A stretch of DNA of 64,000 nucleotides, from positions 2,548-66,547 of the forward strand of contig JAQWAQ010000004.1 of NCBI GenBank assembly GCA_028707635.1, given 5' to 3'. A program made the translations under genes and the position numbers. The stretch is from Negativicutes bacterium (GTDB lineage: Bacteria > Bacillota > Negativicutes > JAAYSF01). Below are positions 1 to 60,600 of the stretch, in pieces. The notes below the pieces were generated by a model. The model did no database searches. It saw only the letters and a program-made list of their open reading frames with translations, and was not told where the DNA came from. Position 1 is the first letter of the stretch. The number at the start of each line of letters is the position of its first letter.

Positions 1-202
1 ATAGCAAAGTTAACTCAAATTAGCATGGAAATCCACATTTTTTCCCTTGATTATCATAGCATTTACTTTCCTATACTGTCAATAATTTTTTCGAATATTA
101 AAGGGATATGTCCTGATAATGTTCGGATATTTGCCCAAAAATCCCGACAGTAAGATTGCTTTAGCGTGAAGGTATATCAGAAACAAGAAAATTAACCATA
201 AA

Positions 203-23955: not shown

Positions 23956-24722
23956 TAGTGGACCTCCTCCCCGAGGTAGGCTTCGATTACCCGCGGGTTA
24001 TTCTTAATCTCCTGCGGTGTGCCTTGGGCAATTATTGTTCCATAATCAAGCACGTAAATACGTTCACAGACACCCATAACCAAGCTCATATCATGCTCAA
24101 TTAAAAGGATTGTCAGCTTAAACTCATCTTTAATCCAGCGAATCATATCCATTAGCTTGTGTGTTTCTTGTGGATTCATGCCGGCAGCCGGCTCGTCAAG
24201 CAGCAGCAGCTTGGGTTGCGCAGCCAACGCCCGCGCGATTTCCAGTCGCCGCTGCTCCCCATAGGGTAGGTTTTTGGAAATCTCATCCTTTTTATCAGCA
24301 AGCTTAAAAATTTCTAAAAAACGCTCGGCTTTTTCCTCGATCTCGGCCTCTTCGCCGTGATACCGGCCAATCCGCAAAATTGATTCAACAAGATTGTACT
24401 TAACATGTGAATGGTACGCAATTTTTACATTATCAATTACACTCAGCTCAGAGAATAACCGGATATTCTGAAATGTACGAGCAATGCCGCGCTGGTTTAT
24501 CTCATAGGGCTTTAATCCTATCACGTTTTGACCGTCAAATTCGATTTCTCCTGTTGTCGGTTCATAAACGCCTGTCAATAGATTGAAGGCTGTTGTCTTA
24601 CCTGCACCATTAGGCCCGATTAAACCAATCAGCTCCCCGGCTGCAATCTCCATTGTAAAGTTAGACACAGCTTTTAGGCCGCCAAACATTTTCGACATAT
24701 TATTGACTTTAAGCAACGTCAC
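23955..24722 (-). CDS. livG: Branched-chain amino acid ABC transporter ATP-binding protein LivG
   Basis: Walker A GPNGAGKTT, signature LPYGEQRRLEIARAL and Walker B LLLLDEPAAG. Start and stop overlap livF. Confidence 0.9.
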   Translation of the reverse strand: MTLLKVNNMSKMFGGLKAVSNFTMEIAAGELIGLIGPNGAGKTTAFNLLTGVYEPTTGEIEFDGQNVIGLKPYEINQRGIARTFQNIRLFSELSVIDNVKIAYHSHVKYNLVESILRIGRYHGEEAEIEEKAERFLEIFKLADKKDEISKNLPYGEQRRLEIARALAAQPKLLLLDEPAAGMNPQETHKLMDMIRWIKDEFKLTILLIEHDMSLVMGVCERIYVLDYGTIIAQGTPQEIKNNPRVIEAYLGEEVH

Positions 24723-25671
24723 GTTTCTTACCCCCTGTCAGCCGGCCAAACAATTTGAGACTCAGCTCTTTGTTTCCAAACAACCCCTGCGGCCGGTAGA
24801 TCATCAAAATGATAAGCATCAATGAATAAACGACCATGCGCCACTCGGGATAGGAAGCTAGCGCCGCCGATATGAACGTCAGCAGGATAGCCGCGGTAAT
24901 TGAGCCTGTAATACTGCCTAAACCACCCAATACCGTCATTGTCAGAATGTCAAACGACTTCATAAAGGTAAAAGAGGCCGGATGGGCAATATAAAAATAG
25001 TGAGAGAACAACGCTCCAGCAACACCCGCAAAGGCCGCCCCAATGGTGAACGCCATTACCTTATATTTCGTTGTATCAATCCCCATGGCTTCAGCAGCAA
25101 TTTCATTTTCGCGTACCGAGATACACGCTCGGCCATGTGATGAGTTAACAAAGTTTTTGATAAAGAAAATCGTCACAATGACAGCAAGAAATGTCCAAGT
25201 AAATGTTGTATAACGGGGAATCCCCATAAGTCCGGTAGCTCCACCGAGATACGGAGTATTAAGAATCGATATGCGGATAATTTCGCCTAATCCCAAAGTA
25301 GCAATCGCCAAATAATCACCTGACAGCCTTAGGGTCGGCAAACCAATGAGAAAACCTAACAACCCGGCAGCTCCGGCACCGACAAGAATCGCTGCGATAA
25401 AAGGCAGCTGAAATTTCACAGTTGCCACAGCTCCTAAATAGGCACCGATGGCCATAAAGCCGGCATGACCAATTGAAAACTGACCGGCAAAGCCGGTAAT
25501 CAGATTTAAGCTTACTGCCAAGATGATATTGATTCCGATTAAAATTAGATTAAGCTCCCAAAATGGCCCTATTACGCCAAACCCAATCAAGCCTTGAAAA
25601 ATCGCATAAATCACGGCACAGCCGCCAAGCGCCAGTAAGTCTCGTTTGGTTGTGTTCTGCAATTTACTCAC
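24709..25671 (-). CDS. livM: Branched-chain amino acid ABC transporter permease LivM
   Basis: 320-aa polytopic permease of the LivHM family. Operon position between livH and livG. Confidence 0.85.
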   Translation of the reverse strand: MSKLQNTTKRDLLALGGCAVIYAIFQGLIGFGVIGPFWELNLILIGINIILAVSLNLITGFAGQFSIGHAGFMAIGAYLGAVATVKFQLPFIAAILVGAGAAGLLGFLIGLPTLRLSGDYLAIATLGLGEIIRISILNTPYLGGATGLMGIPRYTTFTWTFLAVIVTIFFIKNFVNSSHGRACISVRENEIAAEAMGIDTTKYKVMAFTIGAAFAGVAGALFSHYFYIAHPASFTFMKSFDILTMTVLGGLGSITGSITAAILLTFISAALASYPEWRMVVYSLMLIILMIYRPQGLFGNKELSLKLFGRLTGGKKRDVA

Positions 25672-26568
25672 CTACACTTTCTCGCGCACATTTTTACCCA
25701 TTAGCCCGGACGGCTTAAAGAGTAAAATAATGATCAGAATGCCAAAGGCAGCGGCATCCCGGAAGGTTGAGGAAATAAAACCACTGACCATTGCTTCAAT
25801 AATGCCCAAAATAATACCGCCAGCCATCGCTCCGGGAATCACTCCGATCCCGCCAAGAACGGCGGCAATAAAGGCTTTCAATCCAGGCATAATACCCATA
25901 AGCGGATCAATTGAATTATAGTAAATACCCACAAGCACACCGGCTGCCGCAGCCAGCCCAGAACCTACCGCGAAAGTAAAGGATATTGTCTGGTCAACAT
26001 TAATCCCCATCAGCTTAGCAGCATCAGTATCAAACGATACGGCCCGCATAGCCTTGCCGGCTTTAGTCTTTTGGACTACATACGTTAAAATAATCATCAG
26101 TGCAATGGATATGGCTAAAATAACAATTTGCTGACTGTTGATCACTATCCCTCCGAAATTATAAAGCTCGGCGGCAAAAACAGCCGGGAATGTCCGCGGC
26201 TGCGGAGTTACCAACAGCATACCGCCGTATTCCAAAAAGAGTGACACGCCAATCGCTGTAATCAAAATAGCAATCTTGGGCGAATTCCTTAGCGGTCGAT
26301 AGGCCACCCGCTCAATAACCATACCAACAACAGCGGCAACGACCATCGCCATGAGCAACGCCGGGAAAAACGATAACTTTAAGATGGACGTGGCAAAGAA
26401 GCCTACATACGCTCCTACCATGTAGATATCGCCATGCGCAAAGTTGATTAACTTTAAGATACCATAAATCATCGTATACCCAAGAGCGATAAGGGCATAA
26501 ATACTGCCCAATGAAACACCGTTAATCAGTTGCTGAACAAACTGATGAGCAATCGAACCTGCTTCCAT
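25672..26568 (-). CDS. livH: Branched-chain amino acid ABC transporter permease LivH
   Basis: 298-aa permease. Canonical LivH N-terminus FVQQLINGVSLGSIYALIALGYTMIYG. Confidence 0.85.
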   Translation of the reverse strand: MEAGSIAHQFVQQLINGVSLGSIYALIALGYTMIYGILKLINFAHGDIYMVGAYVGFFATSILKLSFFPALLMAMVVAAVVGMVIERVAYRPLRNSPKIAILITAIGVSLFLEYGGMLLVTPQPRTFPAVFAAELYNFGGIVINSQQIVILAISIALMIILTYVVQKTKAGKAMRAVSFDTDAAKLMGINVDQTISFTFAVGSGLAAAAGVLVGIYYNSIDPLMGIMPGLKAFIAAVLGGIGVIPGAMAGGIILGIIEAMVSGFISSTFRDAAAFGILIIILLFKPSGLMGKNVREKV

Positions 26569-26636: not shown

Positions 26637-27809
26637 TTAAGGATTAATCTTTTCGCGGAATGTTTGTTTGCCATCCTTTAATTCGATTATGACGGCGCTT
26701 TTAACGGCGTCATGTGTTTCGTTTAAAGTAATGCTTCCCGACACCGCAGCATAATTTTTAGTTTTGGCTAGTTCGTCTTTAATTTTAACAGGATCAAAAC
26801 TATTGGCCCGCTTCATTGCATCGATAACCATCATTGTTGCATCATAGGACAGAGCCGCAAATGCATCCGGTTTTGCACCATACTTTTTCTCATACGCGGC
26901 AACAAAGGCCTTAATCGCTGGACTGTTGTCATCAGGTGAATAGTGATTGGCAAAGAAGGCATTGTTTAACGCCTTAGCACCAGCAATTTCCGGTAGCTTA
27001 GCTGAATCCCAGCCATCGCCACCCAACACCGGCATGTTCAGACCAAGTTCCCGGCCTTGCTTGATAATCATCCCTACTTCTTGATAATAACCAGGGACAA
27101 AGATAACATCGGGCTTCGTTGAGCTTATCTTAGTAAGGGTTGCTTTAAAATCAGTATCTTTGGCCAAGTAAGCTTCCTGTGCTACAATTTTGCCGCCGTT
27201 CTTTTCAAAGGTTTCTTTAAAGAACTGTGCTAAGCCTTTAGCGTAATCGCTTGAATTATCGATATAAAGAGCTGCTGTCTTGGCGTTAAGCGATTTACTC
27301 GCAAAGTTCGCCATAACCGAACCTTGGAAAGGATCAATAAAGGCCGCTCTGAAGAGATAATCACGAACCTTACCTGTATCCGGGTTCACGGTAACCTTTG
27401 GATTAGAAGCGGTGGGGCTGATGGCCAAGACTTTATTGTCTTGATTGACTTGAGCTCCAGCAATTACACTTGACGATGCAATCGGAGCAATGATTCCCAC
27501 AACCTTATCTTGGGTAATCAGTTTTTGCATTGCATTGGCCGCTTCGGCTGCTTCGCTCTTATTATCAGCGACAATCAGCGCCAGCTTTTTACCATTAATT
27601 CCACCCTTGGCATTCACTTCTTCAATGGCCAATTCAGCACCATTTTTAGCCGACTGACCAAAGGTAGCATTATTACCTGTCATCTCGAGGTTCGCACCAA
27701 GTTTGACGACATCTGAGCTTGTTTGCTGACTGCAGCCTGATACTAAGGCCATTAACATAAGACCTGTGACTGCTAGACTTGCGAATTTCGCAAATTTTCC
27801 CTTACGCAA
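26637..27809 (-). CDS. livJ: Branched-chain amino acid ABC transporter substrate-binding lipoprotein (LivJ/LivK family)
   Basis: Periplasmic binding protein type-1 fold. Start assigned to the TTG at 27809, which gives lipoprotein signal MRKGKFAKFASLAVTGLMLMALVSGC after RBS GAGGAGG. The long ORF extends to 27899. Confidence 0.8.
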   Translation of the reverse strand: MRKGKFAKFASLAVTGLMLMALVSGCSQQTSSDVVKLGANLEMTGNNATFGQSAKNGAELAIEEVNAKGGINGKKLALIVADNKSEAAEAANAMQKLITQDKVVGIIAPIASSSVIAGAQVNQDNKVLAISPTASNPKVTVNPDTGKVRDYLFRAAFIDPFQGSVMANFASKSLNAKTAALYIDNSSDYAKGLAQFFKETFEKNGGKIVAQEAYLAKDTDFKATLTKISSTKPDVIFVPGYYQEVGMIIKQGRELGLNMPVLGGDGWDSAKLPEIAGAKALNNAFFANHYSPDDNSPAIKAFVAAYEKKYGAKPDAFAALSYDATMMVIDAMKRANSFDPVKIKDELAKTKNYAAVSGSITLNETHDAVKSAVIIELKDGKQTFREKINP

Positions 27810-28061
27810 AGTTTTTTCCTCCTCAATGATCATCCACACGTATCGCATTTCTATGCTCTCATGAAAGTTATTATAGGGCTTGGGTTCGTTCTCTGTCAAT
27901 ACTTCCCAGAGGGACTTCTTTGCAATTTGTCCTTATCCAAAAGACATAGTGTCAAAAACAATAGACAAATGCTTGATTTAATCCTCTCTATTAACTAAAT
28001 AGTGTTTAAAAGTTTTTTTATCGTTTAGCCCCGCACTTCGTAACTTGTACCATGTTTACAC

Positions 28062-28883
28062 TTAGTTATGATAGATTTTCGGGCGGCGGTGTTTCAAAAT
28101 TGGCAGTTCTTCCCTCACGCTAGCGATTGTTTTCAAATCAAGGACAATTGTCAACAGGCTTTCTGTCTCATCAGCTTCAGCTACAATTCTGCCCCATGGA
28201 TCAACTGCAATAGAATGGCCATAAGCCTGATATTTTGCCCCAAGTGTTCTAGCCGGGGCAGCTCCAATAACAAAAACCTGATTGTCAATCGCCCGCGCCT
28301 TCATTAAAAGCTCCCAATGAGCCGGGCCGGTAACTAGGCCGAAAGCCGCCGGATAAATCAGCACCTGCGCACCCCGATCTGTCATTTCCCGGGCCAGCTC
28401 AATAAACCGAATGTCATAGCAGATACCAATACCAAGCTTAACTCCGCATGCTGTTACCACGGTAATGTCATTCCCTGCTGTCAGGGTGTCAGATTCCTTA
28501 AAGACTGTTCCTGCTTTAATATCAACATCAAATAGATGCAGCTTGCGATGGCGGCCAATCAACTCCCCGTTTTCCGCAAAAATGAAACTGGTATTATAGA
28601 CCCGCTCTCCGTCCTTTTCAGGTATAGAGCCGCCGACAATGACGATATTCTCCTCTTTAGCCAGTCGTGCTAACAACCTAATTGTCTCCCCATTAGGAAA
28701 ACTTTCAGCATAGCTTGGAAACAACTCTGATTGGTAAGGGCAATTAAACATTTCCGGTAAAACAGCAATCTGACAGCCGCTTTTAGCAGCCCGCCTTACC
28801 ATCTCGGCCGCCTTGTGCAAATTTTCCGCCTTATTATCCACTACGGCCGGTTGGCATAAAGCCATCTTGATCATATCTGGCAT
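28062..28883 (-). CDS. Carbon-nitrogen hydrolase (nitrilase/omega-amidase family)
   Basis: The catalytic triad context E (VLPEMFN), K, C (GIGICYDIRFIE) is typical of Nit/CN-hydrolases. Start at MPDM, with RBS GGAGGT at 8-nt spacing. Confidence 0.85.
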   Translation of the reverse strand: MPDMIKMALCQPAVVDNKAENLHKAAEMVRRAAKSGCQIAVLPEMFNCPYQSELFPSYAESFPNGETIRLLARLAKEENIVIVGGSIPEKDGERVYNTSFIFAENGELIGRHRKLHLFDVDIKAGTVFKESDTLTAGNDITVVTACGVKLGIGICYDIRFIELAREMTDRGAQVLIYPAAFGLVTGPAHWELLMKARAIDNQVFVIGAAPARTLGAKYQAYGHSIAVDPWGRIVAEADETESLLTIVLDLKTIASVREELPILKHRRPKIYHN

Positions 28884-29022
28884 TCTCCATACCTCCCCAA
28901 ATCTAATGTCAACCCTCACTTCACCTTTCGGTTTTCTTTCTCCTGCCCGCACTCTCTTTAGCCTAAAAAACCCCACAAGGACGCAAGAGCTTACTTGCGT
29001 CCTTGTGGGGTTAACCTTTGCA

Positions 29023-31327: not shown

Positions 31328-32962
31328 CTAGCATGCGTACTGAATATTGAGTTTATCGGCAATTGCTTTATCAGTGGTAACCAATGCATCTGACCGGCCT
31401 ACCGGCAGCGTACTGTTGCCAATCGGCGCCATCAGCTTCTTAAGCTCAGCATCAAGGGCCAGCATATAATCCACAATGTTCTGGGCCGCCTTGTCAATAT
31501 CAAGCCGCCGTACCAAATGCGGATCCTGAGTACAGATGCCTGTCGGGCACTTACCAGTACTGCAAGAGTTGCAGCGGCCTTGTTCATTACCGATACAGCC
31601 GCAAAGCTGGATGAGCATTTTTCCAAGAAACACCCCATTAGCTCCTAAACAAAGGAGCTTGAATGCATCAGCTGCTGCATTGCCTGTCAAACCGACCCCA
31701 CCTCCGGCCCAGAGCGGAATTTGTCCCTGGCTGCCTTGCTTAACAGCAGCCAAATAGCATTCCCGAACCTTAGAAACAATCGGATGACCGGTGTGATCCA
31801 ACGATACTTCATTCGCAGCACCGGTTCCGCCCTGAATGCCATCCAGGAAGAAACCGCCGCAAATTTTATAAGGATCACGCAATAGATTGTTATAGACAGA
31901 AACCGAGGTAGCCGAAGCGGCACACTTAATCGCGACAGGCACCCGAAACTTAAAGGCAGCATTCATTGATAGAAACATTTTCTGCACCGACTCTTCAATC
32001 GAATAGAGCCCTTGGTGATTAGGCGGCGACATAAGGTCTGCTTTAGGCACACCGCGGATGGCCTGGACATGCGGCGCAACTTTTGCTGCTGGCAATAGTC
32101 CGCCATCACCCGGCTTAGCACCCTGACCGATTTTAATCAAAATACCAGCTGGGTCAACCTTCATCTCCGGCATGGCCTTGATAATTCTATTCCAGCCAAA
32201 ATGGCCTGACGCAATTTGAAGAATGGTATATTTCAAATACTCTGATTGCATAAGCTTAACTGGCATTCCGCCCTCGCCTGAACACATTCTGATCGGCATA
32301 TTATGCTTTTCGTTGAGATACGCTGTGGCCAAAGCAATGGCTTCCCAGGCCCGTGTAGATAGGGCGCCGATCGACATATCGCTGAATATGACTGGATAGA
32401 TCCAATTAACTGGCGGAGTTGAAGTTGTCAATTTCAGATCATTTCCCACCGCGGCCAGCGGCAGCTCTTTCGGTGATAATACGCGACCGAACGGTGCTAA
32501 AATATCAAAGGTATGACGCTCTGAATCCAGTGCGGGGTCAGTCATCTGAGAAATTCGCCCCACAATGATTTTATCAAGCGTTCGATCCGAATTAAGATTG
32601 GTACGTCCACCCCGTTTAATAGTGGCTCCGCCGGTCCGAGCCAGCAGGTTCTGACGAGAGTCGAGATTACGGATTGGTCTAATCGCGCGATTCGGACAAA
32701 CCTTTTCGCACATCCCACAGCCTACGCATGCATTCGTTAGACTAGCCTTTTGACGAATGACAGGTACTGCGGAGTGACGCTGCGTTGGGGAAGGCTGATG
32801 GCCGGTAGAAACGGTAACTGAACGACGTTCAACGCCCGCTTCGATGGCATTAAAGGTACAGGTTGCTACGCAGCTCCCGCACATTGTACACCTATCGGAC
32901 TGGTATTCAATTTTCCACGGCAAGTCAATCACCGAAACATCCTGCATTTTTACTGTTTCCAT
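31328..32962 (-). CDS. Glutamate synthase FMN-binding/synthase domain protein (GltB2-like) with an N-terminal 4Fe-4S ferredoxin domain
   Basis: N-terminal CxxCxxCxxxC motifs, then the GltB central FMN-domain signatures (LIKIGQGAKPGDGGLLP, DGIQGGTGAA). Confidence 0.85.
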   Translation of the reverse strand: METVKMQDVSVIDLPWKIEYQSDRCTMCGSCVATCTFNAIEAGVERRSVTVSTGHQPSPTQRHSAVPVIRQKASLTNACVGCGMCEKVCPNRAIRPIRNLDSRQNLLARTGGATIKRGGRTNLNSDRTLDKIIVGRISQMTDPALDSERHTFDILAPFGRVLSPKELPLAAVGNDLKLTTSTPPVNWIYPVIFSDMSIGALSTRAWEAIALATAYLNEKHNMPIRMCSGEGGMPVKLMQSEYLKYTILQIASGHFGWNRIIKAMPEMKVDPAGILIKIGQGAKPGDGGLLPAAKVAPHVQAIRGVPKADLMSPPNHQGLYSIEESVQKMFLSMNAAFKFRVPVAIKCAASATSVSVYNNLLRDPYKICGGFFLDGIQGGTGAANEVSLDHTGHPIVSKVRECYLAAVKQGSQGQIPLWAGGGVGLTGNAAADAFKLLCLGANGVFLGKMLIQLCGCIGNEQGRCNSCSTGKCPTGICTQDPHLVRRLDIDKAAQNIVDYMLALDAELKKLMAPIGNSTLPVGRSDALVTTDKAIADKLNIQYAC

Positions 32963-34056
32963 CGTTCTACCTCCAATCTCTCATTGATTAATACTACCTC
33001 GCGTTCATTCGGATAAATATCGAGTGTTTTATCCCGGTCCGGCAAAATTGTATTGATGCCGCATACTTCTGATGCTATGGCCAGAGTATTCTCATCACGG
33101 CCAACAACAACCGGTCGCAGTTTTTTAGAATCACAGCAAGTCATCATATCACCGCTGGGCAGCATTGCAATAATGGTATTCGGCCCATTGATTTCAAGAT
33201 GTCCGAGTGACTGCCTGATAGCTGTTAACTCAGCTCTGTCAGACCGGGTTGTAATCTCAGCGAAAGGCAGCGGCGTGATGACATGTTTATAGTATTTTAT
33301 CGGCCACTTAAGTTCATGAAGAACATAGTGCAGCGTATAAAGGAAATTCTGTGAATCAGATTCAAAGCCGATATAACCGCGATGCAGTGACTTTTGAAAT
33401 TCCTTGTTCTTAGTATAAAAAGTATTTTCACCATTAGCGCATAGCGTATAGCCCTGGAGAAAAAACGGGTGCGCGGCATAGCGAACAATATCATAATTTG
33501 TATTCTGGCGGCACTGCACGACGATGTTTTTTGCCGTCAGCTCATCCGTTTCTTTCCACAGGCCGAAGTATTCGGCAATGTCTCGCGGATCGCCAATTTC
33601 CTTGAGGGTCAGAACATCAGGCCAAAATGAGTAAACATACCCTTGACCGGCTTTTTCCAATAATTCACGAAGCGCCAGCCGGATATCAAGTAATAATTCG
33701 GCCTTAGCTTCCGGAGTCGTATCAGCATAATGCTCCGGATAATCATAAGCGCGAAATATATAGTAAGGCATAGCTTTAATATCAAGACCCGGCCTTTTGC
33801 TGATATTAGGAATCCATTCATAAACAGGATTGAAGTTGTTATTATCCATAAAATCTTCAATCAATTTATTGCCTTTTTGTGTACATGCTACCGATAACAA
33901 CGGTTTGTCCTTATACTCGGCAAATCGTCCATAAAGGTCCTGCATGACCATCGCGAAGCCTGAGTTGTCATGTCCTTCCTGCTGCGGCAGCATTAAATAT
34001 AATGCCTTTGACGGATGAAAAGGAACCTTACTTTTTATCGCCCCTATTCTACACAT
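32950..34056 (-). CDS. Class II (Ntn) glutamine amidotransferase domain protein (GltB1-like)
   Basis: Start assigned to the ATG-TGT (MCRIGAIKS...) so that the nucleophile Cys immediately follows Met, as in Ntn amidotransferases. RBS GGAAGAGGTGGA upstream. The upstream in-frame extension to 34269 is rejected. Confidence 0.8.
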   Translation of the reverse strand: MCRIGAIKSKVPFHPSKALYLMLPQQEGHDNSGFAMVMQDLYGRFAEYKDKPLLSVACTQKGNKLIEDFMDNNNFNPVYEWIPNISKRPGLDIKAMPYYIFRAYDYPEHYADTTPEAKAELLLDIRLALRELLEKAGQGYVYSFWPDVLTLKEIGDPRDIAEYFGLWKETDELTAKNIVVQCRQNTNYDIVRYAAHPFFLQGYTLCANGENTFYTKNKEFQKSLHRGYIGFESDSQNFLYTLHYVLHELKWPIKYYKHVITPLPFAEITTRSDRAELTAIRQSLGHLEINGPNTIIAMLPSGDMMTCCDSKKLRPVVVGRDENTLAIASEVCGINTILPDRDKTLDIYPNEREVVLINERLEVERWKQ

Positions 34057-34270
34057 TAAAATTCCACCTCTTCCACTTTTTCGATTTTTAGAATGTAAAA
34101 AACCCTGCGCAAGACCGGAAATAAAATTCCAGGACCTTCCGCAGGGTCTTTTATACCCACGGTGTAGTGCTTTTCGAAGTGCACTTGTGCCGCTCGGTCC
34201 AGCCCGCAATTTGCGCGGAACCCTAGGCACTCTCCTTGGATCAGCGGGGGCATCCCGCCTTTTCCACATC
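34057..34270 (-). promoter_or_regulatory. Structured 5' leader of the split glutamate synthase operon, with an intrinsic terminator and overlapping anti-terminator (candidate attenuator/riboswitch)
   Basis: Minus-strand transcript contains GACCCUGCG...CGCAGGGUU followed by UUUUUU, ending about 40 nt upstream of the start codon. An upstream alternative stem GGGUAUAAAAGACCC overlaps the terminator's 5' arm. Further upstream hairpins are AGUGCACUUCGAAAAGCACU and GCGGGAUGCCCCCGC. Confidence 0.45.
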
Positions 34271-34675
34271 TATTAGCCTTTTGTCCTTATTGCAAACACA
34301 TTTATTTACAACAACTTAATTATAGAAACGAATTGTTATACTGTCAATATGCATAATAAAATAAAGTTTATTCTGATAAATCCCGTAATTATTGGGTTAT
34401 CTAGCCAGGCTTAGCTTTGTATATTGTATATTTATTCATCTGTTGTCCTTTACACCAGCAGGGCCGCAATGTGTAAACTGTTAAGTCGATTCCTTAGTTC
34501 CACTATCGTGTCATAATATTTTTTTAAAAACGCCTTTATTCACACCATCATGTATTGAATTGTTTTTCAGTATACATGCATATCTTCCACTTTTATCTGA
34601 AGAGCAAGCCGCTATATGAATATAATTGCTTCTTTTGAACCATAATGGTAATAACTGACTATAGAACAGGAGCTT

Positions 34676-60290: not shown

Positions 60291-60334
60291 ATAGTAACCA
60301 GTTGTACAACTACCAATATATTACAATTAAATAC

Positions 60335-60600
60335 CTTTGAGGTAGGTGCCCTAACGGGCTTAATAGGGAAGTCCGGTGTAACGCCGGCGCGGTCCCGCCA
60401 CTGTAATGAGGAGCAAACCCATGTTATGCCACTAGGACGAAATTCTTGGGAAGGTTTGGGGGAGCGATGATCCAGAGCCAGGAGAACTGCCTATCTAACA
60501 ATCACCGTTTTATTTACCCACGCGCGATGGGGAGGGGATTTATTCATTGGAGTAATCTATCCTTCCCGGCTATTCTTATGCCGGGATTTTTATTTGCTAT
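60335..60600 (+). ncRNA. Cobalamin (AdoCbl) riboswitch with a terminator expression platform
   Basis: Conserved core GGTGCC...AATAGGGAAGTCCGGTG.AACGCCGG.GCGGTCCCGCCACTGTAA, the B12 box AGCCAGGAGAACTGCCT, then the terminator CCCGGCTATTCTTATGCCGGG followed by ATTTTTATTT. Upstream of a TonB-dependent receptor. Confidence 0.9.

Follow-up and report, generated by a model that had tools for sequence, protein, structure and literature searches.

A probable (p)ppGpp riboswitch of ykkC subtype 2a in the leader of a split glutamate synthase operon from an uncultured Negativicute

In the 64,000-nucleotide stretch of Negativicutes DNA analyzed here, which we refer to as the window, the minus-strand leader RNA of a three-gene split glutamate synthase operon is very probably a (p)ppGpp riboswitch of ykkC subtype 2a, an ON switch that attenuates transcription of the operon. 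We place the leader in subtype 2a because of its diagnostic nucleotides, its gene context and its orthology, and from family membership and orthology we infer that the window RNA would itself bind the ligand. The initial annotation of this locus, made from the sequence without database searches, had put the leader forward as a candidate undescribed cis-regulatory RNA. That part of the proposal does not hold, given a full-length ykkC match, the presence of the 2a features and the published association of this class with glutamate synthase genes; the leader belongs to a riboswitch class already described, for which this gene context and this clade have been published.

Results

The operon and its untranslated leader

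The operon comprises a glutamine amidotransferase gene (gene 1), a gene for the glutamate synthase FMN domain (gene 2) and a gene for a GXGXG domain fused to a GltD-like oxidoreductase (gene 3), all on the minus strand (Table 1). Sequence searches of gene 1 against Pfam, NCBIfam and the PDB returned no match; its homologues are named "glutamate synthase (NADPH) GltB1 subunit" or "class II glutamine amidotransferase" in public sources, and gene 1 is identified here by the names given to these homologues. Gene 2 is matched by PF01645 (E = 4e-62) as well as by Fer4 families, and gene 3 by PF01493, PF07992 and PF14691, together with NCBIfam matches to the gltA and GltD families. This split operon type had been regarded as unusual in the initial annotation, yet it is common in the Negativicutes clade: a scan with the gene 1 protein of one genome per species (185,579 species genomes) yielded at least 482 stretches encoding relatives of gene 1. 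The best match listed is 83% identical to the gene 1 protein, which itself recurs unchanged only in Logan assemblies. Published gene associations of subtype 2a comprise branched-chain amino acid, glutamate synthase and natA transporter genes, and glutamate synthase genes (gltS, gltB, gltD and glxB) follow 15 of the 105 known ppGpp riboswitches (PMC6003355). The gene set of the window operon fits this published association.

Upstream of gene 1 lies a sigma-70 promoter with full consensus hexamers, from which transcription probably starts at about position 34312 of the minus strand, and an untranslated leader of about 250 nt separates this promoter from the ATG at 34056. In 70 of the 80 orthologous loci listed (see below), the orthologous gene is likewise preceded by a promoter of the form TTGAC[AG]-16..18-TATAAT, and the distance from the -10 box to the aligned aptamer segment is 37-60 nt in the orthologues. 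The orthologous leaders lack the GC-rich hairpin that precedes the aptamer in the window, and most of them have another hairpin at that place. A TnrA/GlnR operator (TGTNA-N7-TNACA) in the transcribed leader was considered but discarded as a shared element of the leaders, as even TGT-N11-ACA occurs in only 7 of 32 of them.

Table 1. Features of the leader and the operon, with positions in the window
Feature	Positions	Strand	Remarks
Sigma-70 promoter TTGACA-17-TATAAT	34347-34319	minus	12 of 12 consensus positions
5' leader ahead of the aptamer	34312-34237	minus	contains GGACAAAAGG (34286-34277)
GC-rich hairpin GGCGGGAUGCCCCCGCU	34259-34243	minus	window-specific, within the 5' leader
P0 5' strand AGGA	34236-34233	minus	pairs with UCCU 34134-34131; A5 equivalent is 34233
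G6 equivalent, unpaired	34232	minus	directly after the P0 5' strand
P1/P1a/P1b domain, 44 nt	34230-34187	minus	holds CUAGGGUUCCG (34226-34216) and GGACCGAGCG
G48 and C49 equivalents	34193 and 34192	minus	in the P1/P1a/P1b domain
P2 hairpin AGUGC-ACUUCGAAAA-GCACU	34185-34166	minus	4 of 5 pairs changed on both sides among orthologues
ACAC junction	34165-34162	minus	invariant in 32 of 32 leaders; C34164 is the C75/C71 equivalent
P3 antiterminator CCGU GGGU-AUAAAAG-ACCC U GCGG	34162-34139	minus	bulged U34143 is the position-96 equivalent
P3-P0 single-stranded linker AAGG	34138-34135	minus	NAGG type
P0 3' strand UCCU	34134-34131	minus	partner of AGGA
Intrinsic terminator and U6	34152-34097	minus	AAAAGACCCUGCGGAAGGUCCUGGAA-UUUUAU-UUCCGGUCUUGCGCAGGGU; 40 nt before the ATG
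Terminator 5' arm	34152-34127	minus
Terminator loop	34126-34121	minus
Terminator 3' arm	34120-34102	minus
Terminator U6	34102-34097	minus
Gene 1 ribosome-binding site AAGAGGUGG	~34072-34064	minus
Gene 1, GltB1/GlxB-type class II glutamine amidotransferase, 368 aa	34056-32950	minus	starts MCRIGA
Gene 2, glutamate synthase FMN domain with N-terminal 2x[4Fe-4S] domain, 544 aa	32962-31328	minus
Gene 3, GXGXG domain fused to GltD-like NAD(P)H oxidoreductase, 788 aa	31389-29023	minus

Competing terminator and antiterminator folds

Every structural feature named in the initial annotation is borne out by the leader. The GC-rich hairpin with a U6 tract that it had placed about 40 nt before the start codon is present, and the isolated terminator folds with -32.5 kcal/mol. 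Its 5' arm draws on the aptamer described below, taking up the P3 loop, the linker and the 3' strands of both P3 and P0. The ACCC that an upstream stem had been said to share with the terminator belongs to the P3 stem, GGGU-AUAAAAG-ACCC, whose 3' strand is common to the terminator 5' arm, so that the two folds are mutually exclusive. Of the hairpins further upstream, the two that had been pointed out correspond to P2 and to CGC-AAAUU-GCG inside 34218-34199 of the minus strand, and a third is the GC-rich hairpin of the 5' leader. The riboswitch-type architecture proposed ahead of the three-gene operon is thus found, with an antiterminator stem competing with a terminator.

The 266-nt leader folds with a z-score of -3.75, and none of 200 shuffled sequences was equally stable. 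The minimum free energy (MFE) structure of the full leader, at -62.1 kcal/mol, includes the terminator, whereas the state with an intact aptamer reaches -35.8 kcal/mol and is about 26 kcal/mol weaker. A simple terminator scan returned nothing at the leader hairpin, presumably missing it because the stem is long and carries bulges. We take the hairpin to be real because both its thermodynamic fold and its conservation support it; most of the 31 orthologous leaders with the aptamer have a predicted terminator that overlaps P3, with 3'-arm sequences that differ among them.

A ykkC-type aptamer in the leader

The aptamer comprises 106 nt (34236-34131, minus strand) arranged as a four-way junction of P0, P1 (with P1a and P1b), P2 and P3. 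A comparison with Rfam, suggested as a check in the initial annotation, gave no match in the leader at gathering thresholds. Once the threshold was relaxed over 33950-34450, however, the ykkC/Guanidine-I family (RF00442) was matched at 34237-34137 on the minus strand, covering model positions 1-107 with 49.9 bits (E = 5e-8), a score that falls below the gathering score of 63 for this family. No other meaningful Rfam match occurs in the leader, and the whole window contains just one more. The sub-threshold score is probably due to the binding-site changes that separate subtype 2 from guanidine-I. Conserved ykkC elements present in the aptamer include CUAGGGUUCCG, GGnCCGAG, ACAC and the AUAAAAG loop of P3, and the MFE fold of the isolated 106-nt aptamer (-37.9 kcal/mol) contains P0, P1, P2 and P3 as in the literature model.

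Diagnostic features of subtype 2a

The ykkC fold is shared by guanidine-I riboswitches (subtype 1) and a set of variants, i.e., 2a (ppGpp), 2b (PRPP), 2c (ADP/CDP) and the orphan 2d. The published marker of subtype 2 is a pyrimidine in place of the guanidine-I A46 (C49 in T. mathranii numbering). In the RF00442 alignment, the consensus GAGAG is replaced by GAGCG in the window, with the C at 34192, and the marker is therefore present; none of the 32 leaders, i.e., the window together with 31 orthologous leaders, departs from GC at the G48 and C49 equivalents. P0 is built from 5' and 3' extensions in 2a and 2b, and A5 and G6 touch the 5' phosphates of the ligand in published structures; the window likewise has a P0 helix that includes A5 and is followed by an unpaired G6. 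According to the literature, the first C of the ACAC junction forms a Watson-Crick pair with the guanine of ppGpp, and (p)ppGpp binding needs a linker of 4-5 nt of the form (A)NARG or NAGG (PMC9881157). The AAGG linker of the window agrees with this requirement and recurs in 25 of the 32 leaders. Collectively, every listed (p)ppGpp-binding feature, namely P0, A5, G6, ACAC, the P1a/P1b G-C and the linker, is present in the window.

Subtype 2b is set apart by G96, a conserved nucleotide of the P3 internal loop that occupies C75. We took the numbering of position 96 from T. mathranii primers (PMC6031431) and from the published 2b (PRPP) Stockholm alignment; the published 2b consensus reads ...ACACCR--nAGGG-AYAAAAGCCCAGR-nGGR-YAGGUUUC, and the middle G of ...CCCAGR-nGG is G96. 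In an ungapped alignment from ACAC through P3 with the T. mathranii PRPP aptamer and the 2b consensus, position 96 is U34143 in the window, a call that hinges on the alignment of a short loop, as anchoring on CCC and CGG could instead set G34142 opposite G96. The 2x3 internal loop of P3 in 2b (nA opposite AGR) is shrunk in the window to U opposite UG.

Published work has also described a few predicted 2a aptamers that bind neither ppGpp nor pppGpp. The aptamers reported to prefer ppGpp over pppGpp combine an NAGG linker with a P1 domain of at most 45 nt (PMC9881157). Because of its NAGG-type linker (AAGG) and its short P1 domain of 44 nt, the window aptamer may prefer ppGpp over pppGpp.

Conservation and covariation in orthologous leaders

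For comparison, we used 80 Negativicutes loci among the matches listed by the gene 1 scan, with 74-83% amino-acid identity to gene 1, and built a covariance model (R1) from the leader alignment, with the window in the training set. In 31 of the 80 loci listed, the orthologous gene is preceded by the same aptamer, at R1 scores of 108-135 bits (119.7 bits for the window, a training member), while 3 loci give weak matches only and 46 give none. The conservation of the leader in orthologous operons, on which the initial annotation had made its proposal depend, thus holds for these 31 loci, whereas the leaders of the other loci differ from it. In some sister lineages the leader has been remodelled or is of another kind, and it gives no Rfam match.

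Covariation among orthologous leaders, also suggested as a check, was indeed observed. Across the P0/P1/P1a/P1b/P2/P3 structure, pairing holds in 95.8% of cells, and compensatory changes occur at 13 pairs; none of 500 shuffles reached the paired value of the orthologue structure, which also beat all slid controls. P0 is AGG/CCU in the window and Pelosinus versus GGG/CCC in Sporomusa and others, with six changes on both sides, and P1 alternates between GUGC/GCAC, GUAC/GUAC and GUGU/ACAC. P3, with 98% of cells paired, interchanges GGG/CCC and GAG/CUC among the orthologues. The ligand-contact positions are invariant or nearly so across the 32 leaders. Position 96 varies between U and G among the orthologous leaders. 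A full-text literature search for the conserved CUAGGGUUCC string returned unrelated papers only.

Among the 31 loci is one from P. fermentans (L041, 3697-3809), in which the aptamer lies upstream of the orthologous gene. From P0 to P0, the window aptamer is 77% identical to it, with the same nucleotides at the contact positions save one linker base, and P3 (CCGUGGGU...CCCUGCGG) is identical in the two aptamers. Two papers report that the P. fermentans glxB aptamer binds ppGpp (PMC6003355, PMC9881157). Judging by species and gene name, the L041 aptamer is probably the glxB construct tested there.

Alternative readings of the leader

The 2a and 2b consensus structures are nearly the same, and a single P3 nucleotide can separate them. 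The leader might hence be a PRPP riboswitch of subtype 2b, in which PRPP would stabilize P3 and P0 and turn the operon on, a reading that draws on the alternative P3-loop alignment setting G34142 opposite G96 and on the G found at the P3 bulge in 18 of the 32 leaders, the window not being one of the 18. We consider it very unlikely. With U34143 at position 96 in the ungapped alignment and a reduced P3 loop, the 2b hallmark G96 is not found in the window; the window P0 is AGGA/UCCU against GAAA/UUUC in the 2b consensus; the P. fermentans orthologue with an identical P3 is reported to bind ppGpp; and the operon encodes glutamate synthase, with no purine riboswitch match in the leader. Slimmer still is the chance that this ykkC-fold RNA recognizes another ligand, be it as guanidine-I, 2c (ADP/CDP), 2d or a new specificity. 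Guanidine-I is the only Rfam family matched, and several specificities are known to have evolved on the ykkC scaffold, but the match, at 49.9 bits, falls short of the gathering score of 63, and the window has a C in place of the guanidine-binding A. Moreover, the P0 and A5/G6 extension, which guanidine-I riboswitches lack, is present and covarying, and the genes preceded by 2c (NUDIX and HAD hydrolases) and by 2d (EamA and TauE transporters) are not those of glutamate synthase.

We give little credence to a protein- or tRNA-dependent attenuator, e.g., a T-box or the target of an antiterminator protein, with an incidental or vestigial likeness to ykkC; no observation calls for one. A terminator-antiterminator layout does not by itself reveal the effector, and sister lineages without the riboswitch have other leaders that contain terminators. 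However, no T-box, glutamine riboswitch or other family was matched at E <= 10 over 33950-34450, in agreement with the initial annotation, which had recognized neither of the first two, and contact nucleotides that are invariant or nearly so in 32 leaders while the helices covary are expected of a functional aptamer rather than of a relic. Least probable of all is that the leader is coding, either as an N-terminal extension of the amidotransferase (an in-frame ORF from 34269) or as a 65-aa ORF (34253-34056), both of which appear in the mechanical ORF list, the latter also being annotated by gene callers on Logan contigs with this locus. In all 80 orthologues listed, the alignment with the 368-aa protein begins at its residue 1 (MCRIG), and class II amidotransferases need an N-terminal Cys. 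Orthologous leaders, furthermore, are separated by indels of lengths not divisible by three and by compensatory changes in base pairs, and the strong terminator sits within both putative ORFs.

Discussion

Proposed mechanism

For the (p)ppGpp riboswitch favored here, we propose that transcription would begin at about 34312 and that the RNA from 34236 to 34131 would fold into the P0/P1/P2/P3 four-way junction during its synthesis. Under amino-acid starvation, RelA/SpoT-type enzymes would make ppGpp, whose guanine would pair with C34164 of the ACAC junction and whose phosphates would be gripped by A34233, G34232, G34193, C34162 and the AAGG linker. Binding would lock P3 and P0 and tie up their 3' strands, thereby blocking the terminator, and the polymerase would read through into the amidotransferase, FMN and GXGXG-GltD genes (ON). 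Without ligand, the stronger terminator (34152-34102 plus U6) would displace P3 and P0, and transcription would stop at about 34097, some 40 nt before the start codon. Since the terminator is about 26 kcal/mol more stable, such a switch could not work at equilibrium, and the ligand would have to bind co-transcriptionally, as described for the ilvE riboswitch of D. hafniense; control of the leader is thus likely to be kinetic. In that riboswitch, P3 is the antiterminator of an ON switch (PMC6003355). If the window leader acts likewise, glutamate synthesis in this uncultured Negativicute would be coupled to the stringent response through ppGpp.

Relation to known riboswitches and regulators

The window leader shares with the described ppGpp riboswitches of subtype 2a the P0/P1/P1a/P1b/P2/P3 fold, the contact nucleotides and the NAGG linker, as well as a P3 antiterminator overlapped by a terminator, the predicted ON logic, the association with glxB, gltB and gltD and a Negativicutes host clade (PMC6003355). 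The P. fermentans glxB aptamer is the closest individual example, and the ilvE riboswitch of D. hafniense serves as the mechanistic reference. Compared with the P. fermentans RNA, the window differs in the linker (AAGG versus AAAG) and in the P2 and P1b loops, and its 5' leader is longer and carries the extra GC hairpin, no more than one would expect from two different species. PRPP riboswitches of subtype 2b share the four-way junction, P0, A5/G6, G48/C49, ACACC and the AYAAAAG loop of P3 (PMC5912903; PMC6031431), and they also share ON switching by antitermination with the mechanism proposed for the window, yet they keep a G96 that pairs with C75 in a 2x3 P3 loop, whereas the window has a U in a reduced loop. 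Guanidine-I riboswitches (RF00442) have the same P1/P1a/P1b/P2/P3 scaffold with CUAGGGUUCCG, GGnCCGAG and AUAAAAG, but they lack P0, carry A rather than C beside the ligand-binding G, have a conserved long-range C-G pair and control guanidine carboxylase and efflux genes.

As one more instance of a published class, the leader adds little new biology. Its value lies in annotation: only the Guanidine-I model matched, below its gathering score, so that such leaders go unannotated by default in the Rfam release used, and the 65-aa ORF that gene callers annotate in the leader is spurious. The comparative set, in addition, marks which sister lineages within the Negativicutes are without the switch.

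A CodY-like box upstream of the promoter

CodY of Firmicutes is a functional analogue of the ppGpp riboswitch, not a homologue: it likewise couples the stringent response to amino-acid biosynthesis genes, but it acts on DNA, as a repressor protein responsive to GTP and branched-chain amino acids. In the window, a CodY-box-like element that agrees with 10 of 15 consensus positions lies at 34381-34367, upstream of the promoter, and such a box keeps a constant distance from the -35 hexamer that follows it. The operon might have two stringent-response inputs, a ppGpp riboswitch and a CodY-like box, although we consider this rather doubtful. Sherlock et al. proposed that CodY has replaced ppGpp riboswitches and remarked that canonical CodY boxes were not found upstream of them (PMC6003355). 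A dual input, if true, would be a concrete example of CodY-for-riboswitch replacement within one orthologous operon, and would partly contradict the remark on missing CodY boxes.

Among Negativicutes with the riboswitch, the CodY-like box, when present at this location, agrees with 10-11 of the 15 positions of the consensus. Several lineages without the riboswitch have a near-perfect box (12-15 of 15), and in Propionispira raffinosivorans (L024) all 15 positions agree.

Aptamer variants and alternative leaders of the glutamate synthase operon

Orthologous glutamate synthase operons of Dendrosporobacter and of two metagenome-assembled genomes carry altered aptamers (loci L014, L015 and L009; see the table). 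These leaders retain P0, P2, a P3-like stem and an overlapping terminator, and are devoid of the canonical P1/P1a/P1b domain (no CUAGGGUUCC...GGACCGAGCG); the AUAAAAG P3 loop is also missing from L014 and L015. The covariance model built from the orthologous aptamers (R1) scores the three at only 20-28 bits, and Rfam returns no match for them. They appear to be remodelled or decaying aptamers.

In Pectinatus, Propionispira and some Megamonas and Selenomonadaceae loci, the operon is preceded by leaders that lack every ykkC element and measure about 220-310 nt. A small hairpin motif, YRGCAAYGGNGCYG, is conserved in the leaders of L024, L027, L033, L037, L039, L054 and L063, with an intrinsic terminator directly 3' of it. 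An Rfam scan of four ykkC-less leaders (L024, L026, L027 and L054, of which L026 lacks the hairpin motif) gave no match. Leaders combining the YRGCAAYGGNGCYG hairpin with a terminator may represent a different, uncharacterised attenuator of the same operon.

Within the canonical aptamers, the bulged P3 nucleotide equivalent to G96 of PRPP riboswitches varies across the alignment of 32 orthologous leaders (A1). It is U in 14, including the window, Pelosinus and Lucifera, and G, the PRPP-type nucleotide, in the other 18, including Sporomusa and Propionispora; loci of note for this position are L005-L008, L011, L012, L017 and L020.

Elements upstream of the aptamer

Upstream of the glutamate synthase promoter, a 15-nt box resembles in sequence the CodY consensus, reported as AATTTTCWGAAAATT by den Hengst in 2005. 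The window copy matches this consensus at 10 of 15 positions, versus a mean of 9.2 for shuffled sequence. Among the 80 Negativicutes loci with an orthologue of the amidotransferase gene, a box at the same spacing is found in about two-thirds of those bearing the riboswitch and in a minority of the remainder. In several riboswitch-less lineages the box reaches 12-15 of 15, as in L024 (15/15), L047 (14/15) and L039, L054, L067 and L069 (each 13/15). A previous survey found no canonical CodY boxes upstream of ppGpp riboswitches and proposed, as a possibility, that CodY replaces these riboswitches (Sherlock et al., PMC6003355).

Between promoter and aptamer, an (A/G)GACAAATGT-like motif recurs in many loci at about +30 to +45 after the -10 box. 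Both this motif and TGTA/TACA palindromes occur whether or not a lineage has the riboswitch, and the fit to a TnrA/GlnR box is partial only, TGT-N11-ACA being present in 7 of the 32 leaders; the motif might serve as a protein operator or form a hairpin that stabilises the 5' end. Further downstream, no orthologous leader contains the GC-rich hairpin of the window, which, on this comparison, looks like a lineage-specific insertion. Because of this hairpin, the window has a longer 5' leader: the -10 box and the beginning of the aligned aptamer segment lie 76 nt apart, versus 37-60 nt elsewhere.

Features of the window and of orthologous loci
Feature	Position	Strand	Remark
65-aa ORF	34056-34253	minus	overlies riboswitch
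In-frame upstream extension of amidotransferase gene	32950-34269	minus	overlies riboswitch
GltB1/GlxB-type amidotransferase gene	32950-34056	minus	
CodY-like box AUUUAUCAGAAUAAA	34367-34381	minus	starts 32-34 nt upstream of -35 hexamer, fixed spacing; compared with same place in L001-L080
Post-promoter motif, window copy GGACAAAAGG	34277-34286	minus	
GC-rich hairpin GGCGGG-AUGCC-CCCGCU	34243-34259	minus	between promoter-proximal motif and P0
G96-equivalent bulged nucleotide of P3	34144-34142	minus	A1 columns 121-124 (orthologue alignment)
Altered aptamers	L014:3719-3838; L015:3813-3929; L009:2268-2352		orthologous operons
Carbon-nitrogen hydrolase gene	28062-28976	minus	PF00795
Second promoter (12/12)	27870-27899	minus	ahead of Liv-type branched-chain amino acid ABC transporter
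Liv-type binding protein ORF	26637-27899		
Liv-type permease genes	25672-26568; 24709-25671		
Cobalamin riboswitch	60327-60508	plus	RF00174, 114.3 bits

Coding features and other regulatory elements

Two reading frames overlie the riboswitch. One of them, the 65-aa ORF, appears in the automatic annotation of public Logan contigs containing the exact locus (L081, L082 and L084:1304-1501). Homologues of the amidotransferase are widespread (1907 at E <= 1e-3), yet searches of Pfam-A, relaxed to E <= 10, of NCBIfam and of PDB sequences gave no match for it; the protein is recognisable solely via source-given names and context. The carbon-nitrogen hydrolase gene begins 46 nt beyond the GXGXG-GltD gene; its best NCBIfam match, deaminated glutathione amidase, scores below the cut-off. 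A simple scan found no terminator in the gap between the two genes, and the hydrolase gene may therefore share a transcript with the glutamate synthase genes.

Upstream of the second promoter, in the region up to about 27990, ATTTGTC...GACAAAT repeats resemble the glutamate synthase leader motif. The cobalamin riboswitch is the sole Rfam match above the gathering threshold in the window.
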